A stretch of 64,000 nt of DNA from a virus. Position numbers and translations under genes: made by a program. The first letter of the stretch is position 1. Each line of letters begins with the position of its first letter. The notes under the pieces are model-generated. The model made no database searches. It saw only the letters and a program-made list of their open reading frames with translations, and was not told the origin of the DNA. The stretch lies in IMG/VR virus record IMGVR_UViG_3300021960_000046, positions 22,740 through 86,739 of that record; one strand, 5' to 3'. This document shows positions 784-22,863 of the stretch, piece by piece.

Positions 784-1890
784 TCATCTTATAATATCAA
801 TATTACTATCTTTAGTCCATATCTCTAAATCATTTCGAATACGACCTTCTTCTTTTAACTTGTTATATCTTTTTGTGGCTAGTTTTCTCCACCATGAAAC
901 AATGTTATCTACATTGTATTTATCATAGTTTTCAGCCTTCTTTATTTCATCTGTTTTACCATTTACTATATCAACAAAGTTTTCAATACCATAATTTGAA
1001 ACATAATATCTTTTTTGTTCTGTTAAGTTCTTTGCGTTTGCAATAGTCACATCAAAGTTTTTACGGTCATCACCATCTAGTGCTTTCTTTACTAGACCAA
1101 TAATACCTGTAGTCATTTTAAGTTTACGACTTGACGCACCTTCTTTTACAAGTTGTCCTTTGCCAATAATATCCTCAACATAGTCTACCATATCTAAGTA
1201 AGGTTTACCATGCAACATAGGAATAAAATCTGACATTGTATTGCCTTTGTATCTTAGAAACGGTTTCATACCGTCATACATTGAGGCACCTTTTGTATTA
1301 CCATAGAGTGATGTAGTTTCAAACATTACCAAGTTCATATCATATTTTTTGTTTAATCGTTCTCTAACAAAGTGTGAACAACATACCCCAGCAAGAAGTT
1401 TACCACCGAGGTAATTATAACCAAAGGGCTGGCAAGGAACAATAACAAAACCCATAATTGCTGTCTTATTGAAAGTTGTGAGGTTTGGTACACTTCCCAA
1501 TAAATCATTTCTTGGTTTACAATTAATAACTGGACTCCCAAAACGCATAAAGCCCACAAACTTATTAGTATTATTTTCTTTAACTGCAAGTTTCAATGCC
1601 TTTCCTGGAATACTGACCATATTACTATGACTTGAAATCATATTAATACAGGTGTCCCATGTGTAGTTATCTAATTCAACAACTTCTAAATCCATGTCCT
1701 CTGGTGACATAGTAAAGTCACTAAACATCTCGGAATCTAAACCCATACCAGGCAAAGATGTAGGCAGACTATCAATCTGTGCCATCTTTTGGTCACGCAT
1801 GTACTGGTCTATTCTTTCAAACTGACCAAAATAGTCGTTGAAGATAGCTGCGACATGTTGTGCTTGTTCTTTACTTAGGGTCTTCGCCAT
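784..1890 (-). CDS. DUF4338 (DruA-like), putative Mom-like GNAT-fold protein, copy 1
   Basis: VP.QP.GYN..GGKLLA and ETTSLYG...S.Y motifs; paralog of 17375..18679. Confidence 0.65.
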   Translation of the reverse strand: MAKTLSKEQAQHVAAIFNDYFGQFERIDQYMRDQKMAQIDSLPTSLPGMGLDSEMFSDFTMSPEDMDLEVVELDNYTWDTCINMISSHSNMVSIPGKALKLAVKENNTNKFVGFMRFGSPVINCKPRNDLLGSVPNLTTFNKTAIMGFVIVPCQPFGYNYLGGKLLAGVCCSHFVRERLNKKYDMNLVMFETTSLYGNTKGASMYDGMKPFLRYKGNTMSDFIPMLHGKPYLDMVDYVEDIIGKGQLVKEGASSRKLKMTTGIIGLVKKALDGDDRKNFDVTIANAKNLTEQKRYYVSNYGIENFVDIVNGKTDEIKKAENYDKYNVDNIVSWWRKLATKRYNKLKEEGRIRNDLEIWTKDSNIDIIR

Positions 1891-1963: not shown

Positions 1964-4446
1964 CCGAAGAAAGCCTCCAGACTTGCCTGTGGTTCTGCTT
2001 TCCAACCAATTGCGTCTAAGATAAATCGCATAGGGTCTAAGAAAGTCTTATCAAACATAACATCATAGTCTATGTATTGTTGTAGATTAAACTCGGTTGG
2101 TAGTGTACTAATATAACTGATAACATCAAACTTAAACGGATTGGCTTCTTTGAGTTTTAGAAACTTAATCTTGTCGCCTTCTTGTATCATAGGATACTTG
2201 TTATGTAATTTGAAATTATCAATCTGATGATTATATATCAAAGCACCTTTCACATGAATTGGTGTACCTTTGATGAATATGTTACTACTACTGGTATACT
2301 TTTTAAGATTGTTACAACTTCTAGGAAAAGCAATTGCTTCTGCCGGTAGTTTGAAAAATTCTGTTCTAAAGTCTGCAATAAATTTATGTAGGTCTGTTTG
2401 TTCTTTACCCATAATAATTTTAATTGCTTCTTTAATCTTACCTCTACAAACTTGTGGTGTTGAAGACTTAACGGCTTCGATACCCATAAGTTTAAGTTTA
2501 GGTTCTGCAAGTCTAACACCTTCTTCATCAAGTACATTTAGCATGTATCTCTTCTTTGCAATCCAGATACCTTTGTTGGCAATTACTTCTCGTTTCATTA
2601 CCATGGCATTTTTAAATGCATTAGAATAATCTGCTAGTTCATCAAAACATTTTTCAATATATGGTTCAATCTTTTGTTCACAAACTTTATTTAAGAAGTC
2701 AACAATCTGGTCATTTGTTTTACCTTTGCATGTTACTTCAACTAATTTTTCTAATCGAACATAGATACTATCTGTATCAGACGCCACAATATAATCTTCG
2801 TTATCTGTATTCAATACTTTGTTTAAATAATCATTTACTTTTTTTTCAATGAAACGAATAATAAACTGACCAGCAGTTGTAATACCAGCAGCCTGTCTTA
2901 CATCATAATACCTGAAGTATTGATTACCAACTGCACCATAAGCTGAGTTCAATGCAATCTTTCTTGCCCATTGAATATTATGGCACCTTGCAATCTCTTT
3001 AACTAATTCTGGATTCTTAGTTCTTTGATATTGTTCTTTTGCCTTCAACATTCGTTTCTTATAAATCACTCGTTCTTTATACATGGTCTCCATCATTTCA
3101 GATAGAAACCCTTGGCTGTCTCTCATAAACAATGCACCGTTAGGTGTAATTGTTGCGTTCTTTTCTTTTAAGAAATCTAAATTAATTTCTCTATTCAACA
3201 TCTTCTCAACACCAACGGCTGAATGATGAGAACCAATCAGTTTTTCTGGTGAGATGTTGTATTGAATAAGAATATGTGGATAAAGAGAGTTGATATCAAA
3301 TGAAACCATCCACTTGTGTTGGCCTGGTATAGGGTCTTTTACATAAGCGCCTTCATACTTTTCATTCTTAATGTGGTCTTCTCTTGGTGGTATGCAAATA
3401 TTCTTCTTCATCAAATAGTTTGCAATCAAAGTATCCCACACTCGCACTTGTGAAAAGATATCATCATAGTTAACTTTGGATTCATATGCAACGGTCAATG
3501 CCAGTTCAATCAAACCTAGTTTGTCTTCTAGTTTGTCAACAATCTCCACATCTTGTATGTTGTAATCTACAAACCTTTGAAAGTCTTTCTCATAAAATTC
3601 TTTGAATGTGCCATAAGGGTTATCGTTCTTGTTTTCATCTAGTTCTATTTCACCAATGAAATCTAGTTTATAACTTTCTTGCCTTGTTGGAATAAACCAC
3701 TTATACAAGTCAAGGTAATCTAACATAACGGTACCAAACAAAGTATAAACTCTTTGTGGTCGACCTTGTACATGAATTACTGCATTGTCAATCAATCCCC
3801 AAGGTGACATCTTTTCAATGACCTTTTGACCTGCAACAAGTTTAATTCTTTCCATCAAATATGGTAAGTCAAAAAACTTGGTATTCCAGCCTGTGATAAT
3901 ATCAGGATGATTTTTCATCCAAAACTTCACAAACTCAAACATCAATTCTTTTTCACTCTTACATTTAATATAAGTTACATCTGTTCTATCTGTATGATAA
4001 TCGCCTACACCCCATGTAATGATGTGTTTGTTTGTTTGATTTTTTACCGTAATACATAACAACTCTTCAACTGGATTTTCTACATCTGGAAAACCATTTT
4101 CACAAGTAGTCTCAATGTCTAGTGTAAAAATTTTAATTAGTTTTTTATCCCATTCAATCTCTTGTGGGAATTCTTGGCCAATATACTGATAATGAAACCT
4201 CTCTAAACCATAGACAGGTGTATTCATCTCAGACCTCTCTTTACGATATCGTCTGGCATCCATAATATTATCAAATGTTATTGGTTGTAGATACTGACCT
4301 TGTAGGTTTTTGTAAGGAGATTTAGATGATGTTAGAGAATAGAAAGTTGGCATAAAGTCCAACTTCTCTTTGTATTCTTTACCGCCGTGTATACCACGGA
4401 CTAATAGTTTTCCTCTGTGTTCGATAACATTTTTATAAAAGTTCAT
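1960..4446 (-). CDS. gp43: family B DNA polymerase (T4 gp43-like)
   Basis: Exonuclease DIET motif; polymerase motifs SFDINSLYP, KIALNSAYG, ASDTDS. Confidence 0.98.
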   Translation of the reverse strand: MNFYKNVIEHRGKLLVRGIHGGKEYKEKLDFMPTFYSLTSSKSPYKNLQGQYLQPITFDNIMDARRYRKERSEMNTPVYGLERFHYQYIGQEFPQEIEWDKKLIKIFTLDIETTCENGFPDVENPVEELLCITVKNQTNKHIITWGVGDYHTDRTDVTYIKCKSEKELMFEFVKFWMKNHPDIITGWNTKFFDLPYLMERIKLVAGQKVIEKMSPWGLIDNAVIHVQGRPQRVYTLFGTVMLDYLDLYKWFIPTRQESYKLDFIGEIELDENKNDNPYGTFKEFYEKDFQRFVDYNIQDVEIVDKLEDKLGLIELALTVAYESKVNYDDIFSQVRVWDTLIANYLMKKNICIPPREDHIKNEKYEGAYVKDPIPGQHKWMVSFDINSLYPHILIQYNISPEKLIGSHHSAVGVEKMLNREINLDFLKEKNATITPNGALFMRDSQGFLSEMMETMYKERVIYKKRMLKAKEQYQRTKNPELVKEIARCHNIQWARKIALNSAYGAVGNQYFRYYDVRQAAGITTAGQFIIRFIEKKVNDYLNKVLNTDNEDYIVASDTDSIYVRLEKLVEVTCKGKTNDQIVDFLNKVCEQKIEPYIEKCFDELADYSNAFKNAMVMKREVIANKGIWIAKKRYMLNVLDEEGVRLAEPKLKLMGIEAVKSSTPQVCRGKIKEAIKIIMGKEQTDLHKFIADFRTEFFKLPAEAIAFPRSCNNLKKYTSSSNIFIKGTPIHVKGALIYNHQIDNFKLHNKYPMIQEGDKIKFLKLKEANPFKFDVISYISTLPTEFNLQQYIDYDVMFDKTFLDPMRFILDAIGWKAEPQASLEAFFG

Positions 4447-7371: not shown

Positions 7372-7447
7372 TGGTGCCCTCTGACGGAATTGAACCGCCA
7401 ACCTACTGATTACAAATCAGTTGCTCTACCAATTGAGCTAAGAGGGC
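7372..7447 (-). tRNA. tRNA-Thr(UGU), canonical, CCA encoded
   Basis: GCCCTCT acceptor stem, D-loop with GG, anticodon arm ACTGA-TTTGTAA-TCAGT, T-loop TTCAATT, ACCA end. Confidence 0.95.
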
Positions 7448-7452
7448 AAATT

Positions 7453-7527
7453 TGGAGCGGGTGACAGGATTCGCACCTGCGACATTTTCGTTGGCAACGA
7501 AATGCTCTACTCCTGAGCTACACCCGC
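7453..7527 (-). tRNA. tRNA-Gly(GCC), atypical D and T loops
   Basis: GCGGGTG/CACCCGC-TCCA acceptor, anticodon arm TTTCG-TTGCCAA-CGAAA, T-loop TGCGAAT. Confidence 0.9.
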
Positions 7528-8500: not shown

Positions 8501-9058
8501 TTAATAATTCTTAAAGTATATATTGAAAGACAAACTTATTCTCTCGCTATCTGTTAAATTAGTATCTATACTATGTAGGAGATAACCAGGAAATAAAATT
8601 AATTTACCTACATTTGGTTTATGGCCAAATGGTCTTCCAGCATAATGTTTAAAGATTGATGAATTCGTTTGATACGCTGGTGTATAAAACTTTATATCGC
8701 CATCATCACCACTTGTTTGGTAATAATATACTCCAGATATATCAGCAGTACCATGGTCGTGTTTATGTCCATAATTACCAGGTTTGAATAATGAAAACCA
8801 AGATATGGTTTTATATTCAGGCATATGATAATTTATTTCGTTACAATAAACAGGTAAGTTTTCATCTAATACTTGTTGAAAGTGTTTGAATGTAAATGTA
8901 CTATCAAAGTCACCTCCTAAGTAATGAGATTTCCACTCATCATGGTATTTGAATTCAACCGTTTTCAACAACTCAGATAATTCGGTTTGCACATTGTTTA
9001 ATTGTGGACCTGTTATCTGATTATAATATATTGGTGTTGAAAAAGGTGTTTCAATCAT
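8501..9058 (-). CDS. 2OG-Fe(II) oxygenase (HxH, TIGR02466-like)
   Basis: HDH..ISGVYY, LILFP..L.H, RISLSFN. Confidence 0.85.
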   Translation of the reverse strand: MIETPFSTPIYYNQITGPQLNNVQTELSELLKTVEFKYHDEWKSHYLGGDFDSTFTFKHFQQVLDENLPVYCNEINYHMPEYKTISWFSLFKPGNYGHKHDHGTADISGVYYYQTSGDDGDIKFYTPAYQTNSSIFKHYAGRPFGHKPNVGKLILFPGYLLHSIDTNLTDSERISLSFNIYFKNY

Positions 9059-9356
9059 TCACTTGTTCATCTTCATCATAAGAAAAGGTAACTTCATATC
9101 CACCTTTTCTGTCTGTCCACCAATCATCTTCTCGTTCATAGTCACACTCACTTACAAACTCCCAAAACTTATCGTTTTCTTCGTCTGTAGGTTCTTCGCC
9201 AATAGGTTCTATTTTAGAACCAAACTGCTGTTCTTGGTGTGATAAGATTTCTTTAAATCTTTGTACTGAACCGAAATCTTGTATGATGAATTCATCATCT
9301 ACATCATACTTGAATTCAGAAGCTACTTGGTGCCACTCAGTTTTGCTGAATTGCAT
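9051..9356 (-). CDS. hypothetical acidic protein
   Basis: 101 aa ORF tightly packed between neighbours; ends in DDWWTDRKGGYEV. Confidence 0.6.
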   Translation of the reverse strand: MQFSKTEWHQVASEFKYDVDDEFIIQDFGSVQRFKEILSHQEQQFGSKIEPIGEEPTDEENDKFWEFVSECDYEREDDWWTDRKGGYEVTFSYDEDEQVND

Positions 9357-9358
9357 AA

Positions 9359-10024
9359 TTAAAACTCACTATCAGGTTCTACAGCAATCCAGTATTGCAC
9401 TTTGGTTGTTTTGTTAATGAAATGACTAATCTTTTGTGAAGAGATAGCAACATCATAATCACCATTAATTAACTTAAAGTTCTCTTTCTTAAAGAAAGCC
9501 TTAAAGGTTTTATCAGTTGTACCAATTTCTGATACATAGTCATTAGTAGAAGAATCCTTCTTATCAAACGCAACCAACTTAATAACCTTACCATCACCTT
9601 GAATTGAAATATCTGGTAGATTTAGTTGTGTAGCCACTTTCATAAGTTTATCGAATACACCCTTAACTAAAGTAAAGGTAACAAACTTATCTGGCATTGT
9701 GATTGATTTTGATGGCGTCATCAAAACGGATTTATCAGCGAATACATATTTAATCTTAGACTTACTATTATCATCTACAATGTGTAGAGATTGTCCACCA
9801 TTAAATTGTAATGTACTCTTATCAAACAATTCAATAGCTCGTAAGAAATCTGGCAATTTATATACACCAAATTCCTGTTCAAAGGTTTCATCAATTGTTG
9901 CTTCTGCTAATACATTCTTTTGATTTGAAATCGTAGAGATTGTATTACCAGGTTTGAACAAAATGTTCTCGTTAATATCAGCAAAGTTTTTTAATACTGA
10001 CATTGTGTTAGCACTCAAATTCAT
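9359..10024 (-). CDS. gp45: DNA polymerase sliding clamp (gp45)
   Basis: LKNFADIN..I, FGVY.L..FL, YWIAVEPDS. Confidence 0.95.
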   Translation of the reverse strand: MNLSANTMSVLKNFADINENILFKPGNTISTISNQKNVLAEATIDETFEQEFGVYKLPDFLRAIELFDKSTLQFNGGQSLHIVDDNSKSKIKYVFADKSVLMTPSKSITMPDKFVTFTLVKGVFDKLMKVATQLNLPDISIQGDGKVIKLVAFDKKDSSTNDYVSEIGTTDKTFKAFFKKENFKLINGDYDVAISSQKISHFINKTTKVQYWIAVEPDSEF

Positions 10025-10052
10025 AATATATTTTCTCCTTCATAATATTATT

Positions 10053-10126
10053 TGGAGCGGATGAGTGGTACTGCCCCACTTTCATTTGATTGGAAATCAA
10101 ATATAATACTTTTATACGACATCCGC
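10053..10126 (-). tRNA. tRNA-Gly(UCC), strongly atypical D and T loops
   Basis: GCGGATG/CATCCGC-TCCA acceptor, anticodon arm TTTGA-TTTCCAA-TCAAA; D-loop lacks GG; T-loop GGCAGTA. Confidence 0.82.
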
Positions 10127-10133
10127 ATTATTC

Positions 10134-10162
10134 AATATACACTAGATGGCCGTCTTTGTCAA
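10134..10162 (-). promoter_or_regulatory. sigma70-type promoter for tRNA-Gly(UCC)/gp45, embedded in an inverted repeat
   Basis: TTGACA-N17-TATATT; predicted start at or just before the tRNA 5' end. Confidence 0.7.
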
Positions 10163-10180
10163 GCCTAGGACGGCCATCTA
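10143..10180. terminator. 12-bp inverted repeat (terminator-like hairpin)
   Basis: TAGATGGCCGTC...GACGGCCATCTA directly after the 10191 ORF. Confidence 0.55.
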
Positions 10181-10190
10181 ATTTTACTTC

Positions 10191-10430
10191 TTAGTCTTTC
10201 TTAGTTACAAATGAATATAACTCAGCAGCCTGTTTCATCACCTCGGTTGGTGAATACATTTTAGGCAAATACTTTTCAGTATATTCAGTTATATCTTTGT
10301 TTGCTTCTTTTACTTTGTTTAGATTTTCATAAAAGATACCAACTTGTGTATCATATGCTTTATCTAACATTTCTTTAGCCATTGCTAAAGTATCGAAACG
10401 AATTTCGAATGGGTTTTTTCCACTTGACAT
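10191..10430 (-). CDS. conserved hypothetical phage protein
   Basis: KNPFEIRF..L.MAK motif; AAAGGAGA RBS supports the ATG at 10430 over 10499. Confidence 0.7.
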   Translation of the reverse strand: MSSGKNPFEIRFDTLAMAKEMLDKAYDTQVGIFYENLNKVKEANKDITEYTEKYLPKMYSPTEVMKQAAELYSFVTKKD

Positions 10431-10463
10431 AATTTTCTCCTTTGTGTCTGTGTTGTGTGTTAA

Positions 10464-10486
10464 GGTGGCGGAATATTCCCGCCACC
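10464..10486 (-). terminator. GC-rich hairpin downstream of hsp20
   Basis: GGTGGCGG-N7-CCGCCACC. Confidence 0.55.
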
Positions 10487-10503
10487 AATATATATCCAAT
10501 TAA

Positions 10504-10947
10504 CTATTTAACTTCAATAGTCTTTGGTTGTTTGTGTTCTGGAATAATTCTTTCCAAAGACACTTTTAAAAGGCCGTCTTTTAGTTCGGCACCTTTAACT
10601 TCAACATCATCAGCGATTGTAAAAGCTTTAGAGAAATATCTTTTAGCGATACCCTTATGGATAACACCATCTTCCTCGTTATCTTCTTTTTCTTCTTTGA
10701 TTGATTTGATAGTTAATACACCATCTTCCAAAGATACATCAATATCTTTTTTAGAATAACCTGCTAATGCAAGTTCAACATCATAGGTATTTTTACCTGT
10801 CTTTACAATGTTGTATGGTGGGAAATTAGGGACAGAAAGTCCTCTAAAGTCGTCTTCAAACATTCTTTCGAAATGGTCAAAGACATTATCAAAACCGATT
10901 GTTACCGGTCTTAATTGATTGAATATACTTAGTGCTTTGTTTGTCAT
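10504..10947 (-). CDS. hsp20: small heat shock protein Hsp20 (IbpA-like)
   Basis: FPPYNI, ELALAG, HKGIA.R.F...F, GLLKV.LER.IPE. Confidence 0.96.
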   Translation of the reverse strand: MTNKALSIFNQLRPVTIGFDNVFDHFERMFEDDFRGLSVPNFPPYNIVKTGKNTYDVELALAGYSKKDIDVSLEDGVLTIKSIKEEKEDNEEDGVIHKGIAKRYFSKAFTIADDVEVKGAELKDGLLKVSLERIIPEHKQPKTIEVK

Positions 10948-11011
10948 ACAAACCTCCTTTTATTAAGCAAAGTTTATTGTTATTAAATGAAAGCCCATTA
11001 TGGCACTTTCA
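10948..11011 (-). promoter_or_regulatory. ROSE-like RNA thermometer in the hsp20 5' UTR
   Basis: AAACUUUGCUU-AAUAA-AAGGAGGUUU hairpin sequesters the SD with a bulged G (UUGCU motif); second upstream hairpin UGAAAG/CUUUCA. Confidence 0.6.
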
Positions 11012-11015
11012 CATT

Positions 11016-11023
11016 TATTTATA
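11016..11023 (-). promoter_or_regulatory. T4-type late promoter upstream of hsp20
   Basis: TATAAATA. Confidence 0.7.
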
Positions 11024-11035
11024 TAGGTATTCATT

Positions 11036-11269
11036 TTAAAATGTCAACCCATAATGTATAATTAATCCTACACCAAGAATTACTATCTGTGGTGTAAAAT
11101 TGAGAAGAATACTCTTCTCTTGCCATTTGATACCCACATAGGTCCATAGAATAGCACCTAACATGTGTACTATGACATTATAAGGGTATGCTTCTGGTAT
11201 TGTGTGTAATGCTATCGCTATTAATATAGTCGAAGCAGCCACATACTTTATAATATTCACCATTTTCAT
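11036..11269 (-). CDS. small hypothetical membrane protein
   Basis: 77 aa with about three hydrophobic segments; GAGGA RBS. Confidence 0.65.
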   Translation of the reverse strand: MKMVNIIKYVAASTILIAIALHTIPEAYPYNVIVHMLGAILWTYVGIKWQEKSILLNFTPQIVILGVGLIIHYGLTF

Positions 11270-11280
11270 ATCCTCATATA

Positions 11281-11635
11281 AGTGGTAGTTTCGGTTTAGG
11301 GTCTTAAACTACCAAAGAGAGCCGCAGCTTTAGTTTGGAGATTATAGAGGTGAAACTAAGCGCAAATGCTAAAACCCCTCTGTATCTGGTAGTGGTAGGC
11401 CTCACCCACTTTTACCCTAGTATCTACTTAAAGACACATTTCCCGAGGTCACGCTAGCGACCTTTTACGGCTACGAAGGCCAATGGACCAGATAAGGTGG
11501 TAGTTTTGATAAAGCAGACTACCAACTGCTGACTATTCGGATTGAACCGAGGCGTCACCCCTTCCATCGCTGGAGGTCTTACGAATTGCCTCCACATACT
11601 ATTTATTACACTTCACGGCACAGCAGATGGAACGA
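11281..11635 (-). ncRNA. candidate large structured non-coding RNA (class unassigned)
   Basis: GC-enriched ~350 nt with no long ORF; many helices, a multibranch junction, a T-loop-like hairpin and potential pseudoknots; strand inferred from G-U pairs and context. Confidence 0.65.
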
Positions 11636-16811: not shown

Positions 16812-17375
16812 CTAATTTGTTTTATACACATAACCCTCAGAAAGACCTAATTCTTTCCATGTACGATTACTTTCTTGTATATTTAAATCCGGATACACGC
16901 CATTGATTTTGTGGTATTCATCAACAAACTCTTTCTCTACCGTGTGAAAATCAATAGGTATCTCCTTCTTGTATTTCTTACCATTGAATGTTGGTATCTC
17001 TACTTCAACAATCGGCAGTAGTAAAAAATAGACTTCTAACCTATTACCAGCAAGCAATTCTTGTTTCATATACTTACAGATTGCATAATTTCTCATACTC
17101 TCTGTCTTGCCAATATCGCCTCTGAAATAAGCCGAGATGGTCGCTTCGATACCGCCTTTGTCTTGCGAGCCACCAATCTTTACTATTTTACTATTGTTAG
17201 TTAAAATGTAAAGTCTTCCTCTTGGATTCTTTCTGTATTCTTTTAAACAAGTGGTGTTTAATGATAACTTATTGTCGTTAAGGAATATCTCACCTAGTTT
17301 GACCCATTGAGATAAATCTAAACCATCAATAGAAGTTACTTCTTTGTAACCTAGCATTTCAGCTATCTTGTTCAT
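16812..17375 (-). CDS. GIY-YIG endonuclease (Hpy188I / T4 EndoII-like)
   Basis: GRLYIL...KIVKIGGS variant of the GIY-YIG hairpin; S.RNY, LEVY, VEKEF..EY...NG.YP.LNIQ C-terminal pattern. Confidence 0.65.
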   Translation of the reverse strand: MNKIAEMLGYKEVTSIDGLDLSQWVKLGEIFLNDNKLSLNTTCLKEYRKNPRGRLYILTNNSKIVKIGGSQDKGGIEATISAYFRGDIGKTESMRNYAICKYMKQELLAGNRLEVYFLLLPIVEVEIPTFNGKKYKKEIPIDFHTVEKEFVDEYHKINGVYPDLNIQESNRTWKELGLSEGYVYKTN

Positions 17376-18679
17376 TATCTTCCTACTTGCGACAGATACT
17401 TAGATTTACATTCTTCCCAACTCATATAGATAATATCATCATAGAAATGGCTTTCGGTTGAAACTCTATCTTGTTTCTTTAAAGACGCCAATCTCTTCTT
17501 AGCGTATTTGTTTTTCCATATCTCTGTTAATGCTTCTACTGAATTGTCAAACTTTCTAACTAACTTGTCTTCTTTAATTTCTTCTCTTAAAAATTCGTTT
17601 GTGTTATTAAATAATTCACCAAAGTAAATACCTCTAGCGTGTTCTGATTTAATTAACTTTTTATCAATACCTAATTTGTTATAGGTAAATGTTAAACTTC
17701 TATTTCTATGGTCTCTTTTATGAGGTTGACCACTATCTTTCTTTGCAACATACCATTCAAAGAATTTATATGTGTGGTTTTTCATCAACCATTGTTGAAT
17801 AAGTTTCTGTGTTGGTTTTTCTGGTTCAAATGAAACTGAACCTGCTGTCCAACCCATTTTCTTCCAACCAAATAATCTATCGTATTGTGATAATGGTATT
17901 TCTTTTGTCTTACCATATAGTGATGTTGTTGTAACACCCACAAGTTTATCTTTGTATTGTGCTTCCCAAGTTTTCTCTACCGTATCTGATAAACATAATA
18001 GAGCAAGTAGTTTACCACCTACTAGATTATAACCTAATGGTTGAATAGGTACAATCGTACTACCAATACAAGTATGATTAATCATTCGTTGAGTTTTAGC
18101 TTCTCGTTCCCAACCAATGTGTTTATCTCTTGGTGTTAAATCTAAGAAGTCTGAGGACATACAAGTTACACCAAGAAATTTGCCTGTCTTCTTATCTCTA
18201 ATTAAAAAGTTTAGATTTCTACCAATGTTACTATTGTTTTTCATTGTAGAAAGGAAAGTTCTTAGACCATTCCAAACGGCAGGACCTTGTGCGTTAGTAG
18301 CCTTAGATAATGTTTCGTTAGTGTCTGTGTAAACTAACTCAGGTTCTAAATCAATATATTCTTCGGGGTCTTCTGGCAACCAGAAGTTATTTTTAATCTC
18401 TTGTAGTAATTGACCTTGTGCTGGGTCTTTTAATGTTTTGCCTGTATCATCAAAAAAACTATTAGTTTCAACCGTAGGATATTTGTGTTGTACTTCACAC
18501 CATTTCTGATACAAAGTATATTCTTTTACATCCATAGCAGAAACAAAGGTCAAGTCTTTAATAACTTGCGCCTTTAATTTTTCTGTATCTACATCTGGCA
18601 CTTTGTCTAATGGATTGTTATCTGACCAACTTTGCCATTGGTCGTCAATCGACATGCCTTTTTTCCACGAATAACTCAT
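17375..18679 (-). CDS. DUF4338 (DruA-like), putative Mom-like GNAT-fold protein, copy 2
   Basis: GRNL.FLIRD..TGKFLG, PRD..IGW, VPIQPLGYN..GGKLLA, TTTSLYG...SQY.RL..WK..G.T.G. Confidence 0.7.
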   Translation of the reverse strand: MSYSWKKGMSIDDQWQSWSDNNPLDKVPDVDTEKLKAQVIKDLTFVSAMDVKEYTLYQKWCEVQHKYPTVETNSFFDDTGKTLKDPAQGQLLQEIKNNFWLPEDPEEYIDLEPELVYTDTNETLSKATNAQGPAVWNGLRTFLSTMKNNSNIGRNLNFLIRDKKTGKFLGVTCMSSDFLDLTPRDKHIGWEREAKTQRMINHTCIGSTIVPIQPLGYNLVGGKLLALLCLSDTVEKTWEAQYKDKLVGVTTTSLYGKTKEIPLSQYDRLFGWKKMGWTAGSVSFEPEKPTQKLIQQWLMKNHTYKFFEWYVAKKDSGQPHKRDHRNRSLTFTYNKLGIDKKLIKSEHARGIYFGELFNNTNEFLREEIKEDKLVRKFDNSVEALTEIWKNKYAKKRLASLKKQDRVSTESHFYDDIIYMSWEECKSKYLSQVGR

Positions 18680-22271: not shown

Positions 22272-22863
22272 TTATCATTCTCAAATTGCCTGATACGGTT
22301 ACTCTTTCTATATCAGATTTAAAAGGCATTACAAAATGTCTCAATTTTGCTGGAAATATAAACATATCTCCTGTTGCCGGAAAGTGTGCATGACTTGAAA
22401 CTACCCAATCGGAATCTTCACCATAAATAAAACTAATAGAACCAGGATCTGGACTATCTCCTTCATGTGCGTCTGCTTCTTTCTTCAATTCATCTGGCAC
22501 TTCTACAAATATAACAAAAGATAAGTCAGCACCATGTATATGTGCAGGATTAAAGTCACCACTTCTCATGTAATTAATCCATAGACCAACAGGTTCAAAT
22601 TGTTTAATCGACCTCTGTTTAAAATGTGCGTCAAACAAATTTGAATATGCGTCAAACTCTTGTTTAAAGTTATCATAAAACCATAAGGACGATTGTTCAT
22701 CAAAATAAAATTGTGACTTTAAATGACCTGCAAGTTTATGATTAAAACTTTGTTTGTTATTTCTAGCTATTGTACCATATTCTTTTAATTTGTCAAGTCT
22801 GGTTTGGTCTACTTTTGTTTGCATTAAAACAGGACCAAAGTAACTAGTTCTAACTGGTATCAT
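22249..22863 (-). CDS. 2OG-Fe(II) oxygenase (HxH)
   Basis: WINY...GDFNPAHIH, FIFPA.L.H.V.PF, R.TVSGN. Confidence 0.85.
   Translation of the reverse strand: MIPVRTSYFGPVLMQTKVDQTRLDKLKEYGTIARNNKQSFNHKLAGHLKSQFYFDEQSSLWFYDNFKQEFDAYSNLFDAHFKQRSIKQFEPVGLWINYMRSGDFNPAHIHGADLSFVIFVEVPDELKKEADAHEGDSPDPGSISFIYGEDSDWVVSSHAHFPATGDMFIFPAKLRHFVMPFKSDIERVTVSGNLRMINDNIQKN

Follow-up and report, generated by a model that had tools for sequence, protein, structure and literature searches.

A glycine tRNA with a rewired elbow in T4-like phages of SAR11 bacteria

Introduction

Can a tRNA gene without the usual GG of the D loop and TTC of the T loop still encode a working tRNA and, if so, where does its glycine go? 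The question is raised by a tRNA-Gly(UCC) gene in a stretch of 64,000 nucleotides (nt), here called the window, which covers positions 22,740 to 86,739 of the IMG/VR virus record IMGVR_UViG_3300021960_000046. The whole record is 86,739 bp long, with a CheckV completeness of 47%; among isolates, Pelagibacter phage Mosig, a T4-like SAR11 myophage of the Kyanoviridae, is closest to it. A first-pass annotation, made from the letters of the DNA, described the gene as an undecayed tRNA-Gly(UCC) with a rebuilt elbow and a promoter of its own, and proposed that it makes a specialised glycine carrier early in infection. The analysis presented here assigns the gene to an extensive and hitherto undescribed family of glycine tRNAs of phages in which the contact between positions 18 and 55 has been replaced in a coordinated manner. 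The use that we favour, at a probability of roughly one half, is codon reading: the Gly-tRNA would go to the ribosome and read GGA and GGG, beside a tRNA-Gly(GCC) serving GGU and GGC.

The gene and its fold

10053..10126, minus strand: tRNA-Gly(UCC), 71 nt plus encoded CCA (Rfam RF00005, covariance model R1, covariation in 62 relatives)

The tRNA body runs from 10126 to 10056 and the CCA occupies 10055-10053, 74 nt in all, at the place given by the first-pass annotation and on the minus strand. The RF00005 match extends over model positions 1-71 of 71 and scores 43.7 bits, where the gathering threshold is 29, with an E of 5.3e-6 over the 64 kb of the window; our own covariance model of the family, R1, gives 91.9 bits. 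In the RF00005 alignment, the acceptor stem pairs at 7/7 positions, the anticodon stem at 5/5 and the T stem in five pairs (A49-U65, G50-C64, U51-A63, G52-C62 and G53-C61), so that the complete pairing of these three stems and the two T-stem pairs singled out at first pass, A49-U65 and U51-A63, are both recovered. The D stem consists of G10-U25, U11-A24 and A12-U23, followed by a U13/U22 mismatch. The anticodon loop TTTCCAA carries UCC, the variable loop has 4 nt, and U73 precedes the CCA. The single-sequence fold has an energy of -20.7 kcal/mol (z = -3.19), and none of 200 shuffles is as good. The bases G1-C72, C2-G71, G3-C70, U73, C35 and C36, which we take to be the identity set of bacterial glycyl-tRNA synthetase (GlyRS), are all present.

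The departure from an ordinary tRNA lies in the two loops that form the elbow. The D loop is AAAAGTA, with A18 and G19; it has no GG, as had been claimed, but is 7 nt long and not six. The T loop reads GGCAGTA (G54, G55, C56 and G58) and is indeed without TTC. From the canonical elbow set of G18, G19, T54, pseudouridine 55 (Psi55), C56 and A58, the window tRNA keeps only G19 and C56, with A, G, G and G at positions 18, 54, 55 and 58. Since one G of the D loop remains and C56 is kept, a G19-C56 pair is still possible. ARAGORN, run on the window, reports a tRNA-Thr and a tRNA-Gly(GCC) only and does not report this gene.

Relatives and covariation

Relatives were collected in two ways. In a set of 58 viral loci anchored on gp45, with a threshold of at least 77 bits against R1, the element is present in the available flank of 31 loci and was not found in that of 27, some of which have little upstream DNA; absence from a 1.5-kb flank means little, because in phage HTVC008M the element lies 2.2 kb from gp45. 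A scan with a pattern for the 5' half gave at least 119 further viral stretches with relatives. Together, these copies yielded the 62 distinct sequences that were aligned. In this alignment, 94.4% of the stem cells pair, and at 11 of the 21 stem pairs both partners have changed. Covariation scores 0.532, compared with 0.167 +/- 0.009 for shuffled alignments, none of 500 of which reaches it, and with at most 0.09 when the partners are slid. RNAalifold, given no structure, recovered the acceptor, anticodon and T stems. The D arm is invariant in the 62 sequences because the search pattern fixed it; among copies found with R1, the D stem shows compensation, A12-U23 being replaced by U12-A23 in L002 (GTTT/AAAC) and G10-C25 being present in many others. 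Compensatory changes thus occur across all four stems. The search for homologs and covariation suggested at first pass therefore revealed compensated stems and no random decay.

The conserved positions are those expected of a glycine acceptor: G1, C2, G3, C35, C36, the 3' acceptor C-C-G-C and U73 are invariant in 62/62 sequences. Taken by fixed offset, the encoded CCA is missing in 12 of 99 contexts, mainly in the class with T loop TGCAATA, and the other sub-classes encode it. The window tRNA is 94-100% identical to copies that stand beside gp45 genes only about 70% identical in DNA, which implies that it is under strong constraint, has been exchanged recently, or both. The view of the gene as a pseudogene in decay or as a fold that resembles a tRNA by chance, for which the rejection of the gene by ARAGORN and the missing GG and TTC motifs could be quoted, is therefore very improbable, since decay explains neither compensatory changes in all four stems nor such conservation beside a diverged gp45. 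The covariation, with the retained glycine identity bases and CCA, upholds the earlier view of a real, selected tRNA-Gly(UCC). It is very probably a functional phage gene for a glycine-accepting tRNA, derived from a T4-type tRNA-Gly(UCC), in a family that, as far as searched, is confined to SAR11 T4-like phages (pelagimyophages).

The general tRNA model copes unevenly with the family. Among ten representative loci, RF00005 scores 35.8-52.3 bits in eight, and those of Mosig (L001) and L061 are unreported at E up to 1. Two groups of copies depart from the common layout. A 72-nt sub-class with T loop TGCGATT (L067 8193-8264, L110 3985-4056, L167 10165-10236) has a G50/A64 mismatch or a bulged A in the T stem and C in place of the purine at position 37; 2-3 kb from these copies lies a canonical tRNA-Gly(UCC). 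The copies at L098 5116-5185 and L130 6417-6486 have a 6-nt anticodon loop, one T fewer, with the rest intact, possibly an assembly error or a variant.

The elbow contacts

7453..7527, minus strand: partner tRNA-Gly(GCC) with the A18/G55 swap (D loop AGGAGTA, T loop TGCGAAT)
7372-7447: canonical tRNA-Thr beside tRNA-Gly(GCC), 6 nt apart (ARAGORN)

In the available text of PMC7912444, U55-G18, C56-G19 and U54-A58 are named as the key conserved T-loop contacts, and U55 and T54-A58 as near-universal. Of the 64 distinct members of the present family, none departs from G53-C61, G55, C56 or a purine at 57. All but one have D loop AAAAGTA, the exception being AGAAGTA; HTVC008M, outside the 64, also has AGAAGTA. 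Positions 54 and 58 are occupied by G/G (36 sequences), A/T (10), T/A (9), T/T (7) or C/A (2). The tRNA-Gly(GCC) of the window carries the same swap, and among close relatives of such a tRNA D loop AGTGGTA goes with T loop TTCGAAT, and D loop AG(G/T/A)AGTA with T loop TGCGAAT. Because these GCC partners fix the numbering, it can be seen that G18 becomes A exactly when U55 becomes G, and that G19 and C56 stay. The phage glycine tRNAs seen comprise 10 distinct sequences with G18/U55 and 69 with A18/G55 (the 64 of the family and five GCC partners); mixed cases number zero, another argument against a pseudogene. The swap occurs in 0/24 distinct non-glycine tRNAs of the same loci (Ala, Arg, Asn, Asp, Leu, Pro, Ser and Thr).

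The elbow is thus rewired, not lost. The first-pass view stands to the extent that the usual GG and TTC are gone; it does not stand where it implied that contacts are lacking, since A18/G55 replaces one of them and G19-C56 is kept. In the cloverleaf, the elbow would be held by G19-C56, with A18/G55 in place of G18/Psi55 and G54/G58 in place of T54/A58, a geometry that the covariation suggests. We found no earlier description of an A18/G55 elbow or of the HTVC008M glycine tRNA in a literature search that was thin on subscription journals. The family represents a natural and widespread coordinated replacement of G18/Psi55 and T54/A58, which are among the most conserved contacts of tRNA. It offers structural work an alternative elbow and a probe of what RNase P, the CCA-adding enzyme, TruB and TrmA, elongation factor Tu (EF-Tu) and the ribosome need.

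Codon reading as the proposed use

If the tRNA is used in translation, its anticodon loop and the codon usage of its phages should bear the marks of decoding. In the 62-sequence alignment the anticodon loop has 7 nt, U33 is invariant, and A37 and A38 occur in at least 90% of sequences. Position 34 is U, A or G, so that the anticodon is always of a glycine type (UCC, ACC or GCC). The anticodon follows the glycine codons of the phages: in the classes with ACC, the share of GGT is 0.71-0.77 and that of GGA 0.07-0.13, whereas in the UCC classes for which no GCC or ACC partner was seen (T loops TGCAATA and TGCATTA) the shares are 0.46-0.52 and 0.29-0.34. The window's class has 0.66 GGT and 0.16 GGA. 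Per contig, the median share of GGA is 0.233 with UCC (n = 57) and 0.09 with ACC (n = 33; one-sided Mann-Whitney p 1.4e-7), the contigs being related. A second glycine tRNA (GCC, ACC or UCC) lies 2-3 kb away from UCC copies in 25 of 61 contexts and near ACC copies in 0/36, in loci of differing lengths, which makes the absences weak evidence.

In the favoured reading, host GlyRS would charge the tRNA, as the retention of G1-C72, C2-G71, G3-C70, U73, C35 and C36 suggests, and the Gly-tRNA would decode GGA and GGG with a lower affinity for EF-Tu than is usual for glycine tRNAs.

The ACC copies bear on the use made of the family as a whole, the window copy being UCC. According to the available part of PMC6720975, tRNA-Gly(ACC) is "banished from nearly all organisms"; here, ACC is conserved in relatives that include HTVC008M and Mosig. 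Partner tRNAs with a canonical elbow, both GG and TTC being present, also carry ACC and lie 2.5-9.3 kb downstream of the element in L111, L125/L159 and L144; codon reading with A34 thus appears to take place in these GGT-rich phages. The phages with a tRNA-Gly(ACC) (L111, L125, L159, L144 and the 36 ACC contexts, e.g., L001, L005 and L061) have 64-77% GGT. As ACC-bearing phages are cultivable, the reason why tRNA-Gly avoids A34 becomes testable.

Several observations weigh against codon reading as the use of the tRNA. GGA makes up 15% and GGG 1% of the glycine codons of the window phage, and within the T-loop class of the window the share of GGA is 0.125 against 0.106 (p = 0.037), a weak link between codon use and anticodon, the contigs not being independent. 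A canonical tRNA-Gly(UCC) stands beside the rewired one in five related contexts (L067, L110, L167 and L060/L177); none was found in the 86.7-kb record of the window, itself 47% complete. The restriction of the elbow swap to glycine tRNAs is left unexplained by codon reading alone. The T stem is a further difficulty. Its contribution to EF-Tu binding was predicted with the Schrader-Uhlenbeck T-stem model, built on E. coli and Thermus data (PMC3239215, as far as its text was available), with a baseline of -10.1 back-calculated from the Staphylococcus entry; stems with G50-U64 are possibly non-additive in this model. The predicted energy of the window tRNA is -9.6, compared with a mean of -10.8 (sigma 0.68) for bacterial tRNA-Gly(UCC), and that of the family -8.1 to -10.0, with a mean of -9.1 (61 of the 64 distinct sequences, three having an untabulated pair). 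The rewired family is thereby predicted to bind 1.7 more weakly than its class mean, compared with 0.71 for partner glycine tRNAs (n = 11) and 0.26 for non-glycine tRNAs (n = 22). By the same model, the T stem of T4 tRNA-Gly would give -11.0, that of S-SM2 tRNA-Gly -10.8 and that of the cellular comparator -11.0. The pair 51-63 is U-A or A-U in 58 of the 64 family sequences. Finally, the features that set the family apart are partly those of a tRNA outside translation: the non-proteinogenic tRNA-Gly of staphylococci has G55, TGC or TGT for TTC, and no pseudouridine, in the available text of PMC7826273.

The staphylococcal parallel is worth considering closely. The cell-wall tRNA-Gly described there has the T stem A49-U65/U50-A64/A51-U63 (PMC7826273, available part), and Table 4 of PMC3239215, as available, lists a predicted -9.5. 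Both tRNAs have a UCC anticodon, glycine identity, G55 (64/64 in the family; GGC at 54-56 in the window) and no Psi55; both combine A49-U65 with an A/U pair at 51-63, and the predicted EF-Tu energies, about -9.5 and -9.6, are close. However, the present gene belongs to a phage with a Gram-negative alphaproteobacterial host, and searches for a Fem-type transferase were negative in the three phage records covered. The family retains G19, which covaries with C56, whereas the staphylococcal tRNAs have uridine at 19; positions 54 and 58 vary here, and relatives have ACC and GCC anticodons. The staphylococcal type is also accompanied by a proteinogenic isoacceptor with the same anticodon; here, the tRNA-Gly(UCC) of the host itself would take this part. 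The similarity is one of resemblance, and kinship is not implied.

A possible glycine donor outside translation

784-1890, minus strand: DruA-like open reading frame (ORF) (PF14236, 2.5e-6)
17375-18679, minus strand: DruA-like ORF (PF14236, 6.4e-20)

The same features can be read differently. It is possible, although we hold it to be less likely than decoding, that the tRNA is a dedicated glycine donor, charged by GlyRS, held largely off EF-Tu and the ribosome through its weak T stem and changed elbow, and feeding a phage transferase, for which two GNAT-fold proteins of the DruA family in this phage are candidates. The DruA-like proteins might act like Mom of phage Mu, and phage-encoded glycine tRNAs would be recognisable for this purpose by their A18/G55 elbow. 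G55 and the weak A/U pairs at 49-65 and 51-63 would fit such a role by analogy, being those of the only well-studied non-ribosomal tRNA-Gly. By predicted EF-Tu energy, the family is also furthest below its class mean of any tRNA group in the same phages. The limitation of the elbow swap to glycine tRNAs, and the presence of a canonical tRNA-Gly(UCC) beside the rewired one in the five contexts mentioned above, are easier to understand with a glycine-specific partner than with decoding. On the other side, the anticodon follows codon use, which is needless for a pure donor. The first-pass idea of a specialised glycine carrier is left as a proposal: the predicted weak T stem and G55 fit it, but an anticodon that tracks codon use fits ordinary decoding.

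Structure prediction bears on the candidate partner proteins. An AlphaFold model of the protein of 17375-18679, made with 43 diverse relatives, has a mean predicted local distance difference test (pLDDT) score of 93.3, and its core is a GNAT fold; the consensus of the DruA-like alignment contains the motifs QPFGxNxxGGKLLA and TTSLYG..SQY. Among 48,161 chains, Mu Mom (8bv8_B) ranks first for the whole protein (Z 9.4, root-mean-square deviation (rmsd) 3.9, 168 residues aligned) and for residues 100-380 alone (Z 10.7, rmsd 4.1, 171/202 aligned, the longest alignment at Z of at least 9.3). Its lead over generic acetyltransferases and FemA is however below one Z unit, which amounts to a tie; 111 chains reach a Z of at least 8 with the DruA-like domain, and the best 50 of these 111 are all acyltransferase-type entries. 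There is no sequence link to Mom (phmmer, and a profile against PDB sequences), Foldseek returned nothing at E <=0.001, and a search of the ESM Atlas with the DruA-like protein returned DruA clusters only. The Druantia literature searched, in the parts available, gives no function for DruA.

The comparison with Mom is instructive in both directions. Mom moves glycine from Gly-tRNA-Gly to N6 of adenine in double-stranded DNA, and the likeness consists of a phage-encoded GNAT fold together with a glycine tRNA, Mom being the top structural match of the modelled DruA-like protein. Mom is characterised by a helical insertion and the essential residues R111, S124 and R151, and the comparison with the DruA-like protein is at the level of the fold, with an identity of 6-7%. 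Unlike the tRNA proposed here as a donor, the tRNAs used by Mom are those of the host, with any anticodon: it takes all three host isoacceptors and needs no special tRNA (both statements from the available text of PMC13219725), and Mu encodes no tRNA.

Gene content is similarly divided. Among 50,697 phage records, this DruA-like protein is found at E <=1e-8 in two isolates only, Mosig and HTVC008M, which are also the two with the tRNA, and the DruA-like gene is 4-8 kb from the tRNA in the three records in which both were located. Yet, of the 28 related loci with a length of 9 kb or more, no more than 14 include a DruA-like gene within the DNA covered, and 0/5 loci of the two classes that coexist with a canonical UCC tRNA do so, and an ORF with 30% identity occurs in cyanophage S-SM2, whose tRNA-Gly(UCC) is canonical. 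FemAB (PF02388), Acetyltransf_6 (PF13480) and L/F-transferase have no match in the 47%-complete record of the window, in Mosig or in HTVC008M. No DNA modification of these phages turned up, no dedicated search having been made. The donor reading thus forms a consistent whole, for which a precedent exists, with each link circumstantial. In its full form, in which private glycine tRNAs are taken out of translation by the A18/G55 elbow and an EF-Tu-weak T stem and feed Mom-like DruA GNATs that modify DNA or another target, we regard it as doubtful. If it were true, no earlier case of a non-ribosomal tRNA encoded by a virus would precede it, and the staphylococcal solution would have arisen a second time, independently; a virus tRNA would be tied to tRNA-dependent modification by a GNAT, and DruA would gain a function, in phages of the ocean's most abundant bacteria. 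The SAR11 host presumably depends on external glycine or serine.

A different role in trans may also be considered. Defences and toxins directed at tRNA are known, some of which act on Gly-tRNA, and the tRNA might act as a decoy for, or compete for, a tRNA-Gly-binding host protein such as a toxin, a nuclease or a starvation sensor, or might evade recognition by one. The elbow change is specific to glycine and is found in two glycine tRNA lineages, and in HTVC008M this gene is the only Rfam tRNA match; these points would suit such a role. No candidate factor was identified, however, the strict GlyRS identity set and the CCA indicate that charging matters, and the evading version overlaps with decoding. 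We consider this role improbable and retain codon reading as the favoured use.

Promoter and transcript

10134..10162, minus strand: sigma-70-type promoter, TTGACA (10162-10157), 17 nt, TATATT (10139-10134), 11/12
10144..10179, minus strand: G+C-rich hairpin with 11-bp arms (10179-10169 and 10154-10144), read from the sequence
10022..10052, minus strand: A+T-rich spacer of 28 nt, with Shine-Dalgarno sequence AAGGAG (10040-10035) and the gp45 ATG (10024-10022)
9359..10024, minus strand: gp45 sliding clamp, directly downstream (phrog_223, 2.7e-68)

How such a tRNA would be produced is suggested by its surroundings. The -10 hexamer ends 7 nt before G1 (10126), and the base before G1 is T. TTGACA-17-TATATT is the best promoter match in 9000-11500, a region with 13 sites of at least 9/12 compared with 12.0 +/- 2.9 in shuffles; as this local scan is no richer than shuffles, the case for the promoter rests on its conservation in relatives. 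Over the whole window, TTGACA-N16-18-TANNNT occurs 13 times against 5.85 +/- 2.04 expected, one of 100 shuffles reaching 13, a modest enrichment. In relatives, 57 of the 95 distinct contexts with at least 60 nt upstream score at least 10/12, and in 43 of those 57 the gap between the end of the -10 and G1 is 7-8 nt. The sigma-70-type promoter that had been said to start almost at the 5' end of the tRNA does abut it, and the arrangement recurs. The leader is about 10 nt in L002 and L010, and 14 contexts score only 6/12; the leaderless layout is thus not universal.

Polymerase of the E. coli type starts at a usual spacing from the -10 and prefers a purine. This spacing and preference make G1 a likely start, so that transcription is predicted to begin at the mature 5' end or beside it, and many copies would therefore lack a 5' leader. 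Host RNA polymerase would begin at G1 or one or two bases off, with little or no RNase P trimming. To judge from the promoter type alone, expression of the tRNA may be early. The hairpin begins 12 nt past the stop codon (10191-10193) of the upstream ORF, and its loop holds the -35 hexamer; a similar hairpin surrounds TTGACA upstream of the element in L002, L010 and L014, with different stem sequences.

On the 3' side, no minus-strand terminator-like site is reported between the tRNA and gp45, which makes their co-transcription likely: the transcript would continue into gp45, and the tRNA would be released by cleavage in the A+U-rich spacer downstream of its CCA. Contigs from metatranscriptomes cover the tRNA in three of four runs (X2 is without cover); such contigs show neither transcription nor its start, strand or level, and DNA carry-over is possible. 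One of them (X1 record 3) spans the tRNA, reaching 6 nt beyond G1 on the upstream side and into the gp45 of a relative on the other. The ends of two contigs lie 3 and 6 nt upstream of G1, and X3 record 21 and X4 record 29 cross the promoter.

The place of the element, directly after a promoter and 28 nt before gp45, raises the alternative that it acts in cis as a processing site or stabilising 5' structure of the gp45 mRNA and was never a tRNA. Of 99 contexts, 45 have the gp45 start 27-57 nt past the discriminator, which would agree with this; but in 19 the distance is 496-687 nt, in 35 no gp45 was found up to 900 nt away, and the HTVC008M element stands before the gene for ribosomal protein S21. 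A leader specific to gp45 is rejected because the position of the element varies so much. Moreover, a processing signal has no need of glycine identity bases, glycine-only anticodons or a CCA. We therefore consider a cis-acting element quite improbable, more so than a decoy in trans, and continue to treat the gene as one for a tRNA.

The ORF upstream of the tRNA (10191-10499, minus strand, 102 amino acids) has no PHROG or Pfam family, the best hit being CdiI_4 at E 0.036, below the cut-off. It has a high word depth in metatranscriptome contigs, a measure unfit to rank genes.

Origin and distribution

The gene resembles phage tRNAs more than cellular ones. It is 75.7% identical to the canonical tRNA-Gly(UCC) of L110, 67.6% to that of T4 and 52.7% to a cellular alphaproteobacterial tRNA-Gly(UCC); an origin from the host was rejected on this ground. 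The likeness to T4 tRNA-Gly, noted at first pass, was confirmed when the T4 gene (T4t006, NC_000866) was fetched and aligned: both are 74 nt long with CCA and share 6/7 acceptor positions, the D stem including U13/U22, a 4-nt variable loop, the type of anticodon loop and U73. The differences are concentrated in the elbow. The D loop of T4 is AATGGTA, compared with AAAAGTA here (G18 to A), its T loop is TTCGATT, compared with GGCAGTA (U54, U55 and A58 changed), and its 51-63 pair is G-C, compared with U-A; the predicted EF-Tu energies differ correspondingly (-11.0 in T4 against -9.6). The T4 gene is located in a tRNA cluster, whereas the window gene stands alone behind its own promoter. Canonical tRNA-Gly(UCC) genes with the same D arm occur in related marine contigs (L110, L067, L167 and L060). 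The shared layout and these identities indicate that the family is an offshoot of T4-type tRNA-Gly.

No cellular copy was found in 185,579 species genomes by a pattern with a fixed D arm, from which diverged copies could escape; the scan gave three stretches, two due to chance and one a phage contig binned into a metagenome-assembled genome (MAG). In the family of the MAG carrying L190, all 7/7 loci inspected hold a canonical tRNA-Gly(UCC), and these serve as comparators of alphaproteobacterial type; this search scored 150 of about 1500 candidates per genome, and the 12 of 28 genomes without a match are uninformative. When the 74 nt were compared by blastn with 50,697 phage records, Mosig was the sole true match, six other rows (E 0.6) being chance. 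Megablast of 9300-10900 against phages matched the Hsp20 part only, in Mosig. A match to tsr25 (21.1 bits against a cut-off of 63) was judged spurious, and the Staphylococcus origin at which it hinted was dropped after megablast. A stretch of the Methylophilales (OM43) phage Melnitz (MZ577098.1 45990-46070; L187 1501-1581) is not a family member, with 24.6 bits against R1, z = -1.41 and no acceptor pairing; it lies directly after a TTGACA, has a family-like D arm and a GGCAGTA loop, and may be a remnant or a product of chance.

Annotation and isolates

The expectation that automated finders would miss the gene proved right for the family at large. ARAGORN finds 3 of 151 copies and misses 148. 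HTVC008M, the type pelagimyophage, was published with zero tRNAs, being listed so from tRNAscan-SE in the available text of a pelagimyophage survey (PMC7029224). Its genome (NC_020484.1) holds an unannotated copy at 91140-91210 on the plus strand (L184 1501-1571), with anticodon ACC and T loop AGCGTTA, 17 nt before the S21 gene; it is the sole Rfam tRNA match in the 147-kb genome. In Mosig (MT647606.1 7779-7852, minus strand; L001 3865-3938), the copy lies under a 96-nt coding sequence annotated as a "hypothetical protein", Mosig_000011. The family is thus invisible to routine annotation, and because annotation overlooks it, tRNA counts and tRNA-based host-linking in marine viromes are biased.

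Some other structured RNAs lie near family members. In L062, a manA RNA motif (RF01745, 196.9 bits; 3525-3714, plus strand) is located 50 nt upstream of the tRNA (3764-3834), a copy of the sub-class with T loop TGCAATA and no encoded CCA. A permuted two-piece transfer-messenger RNA (tmRNA) of alpha type (RF04321, 104-106 bits) is present in the family-bearing contigs L105 (9545-9981) and L067 (2909-3301); in L105, it is directly followed by a glutamine riboswitch aptamer (RF01739, 58.5 bits).

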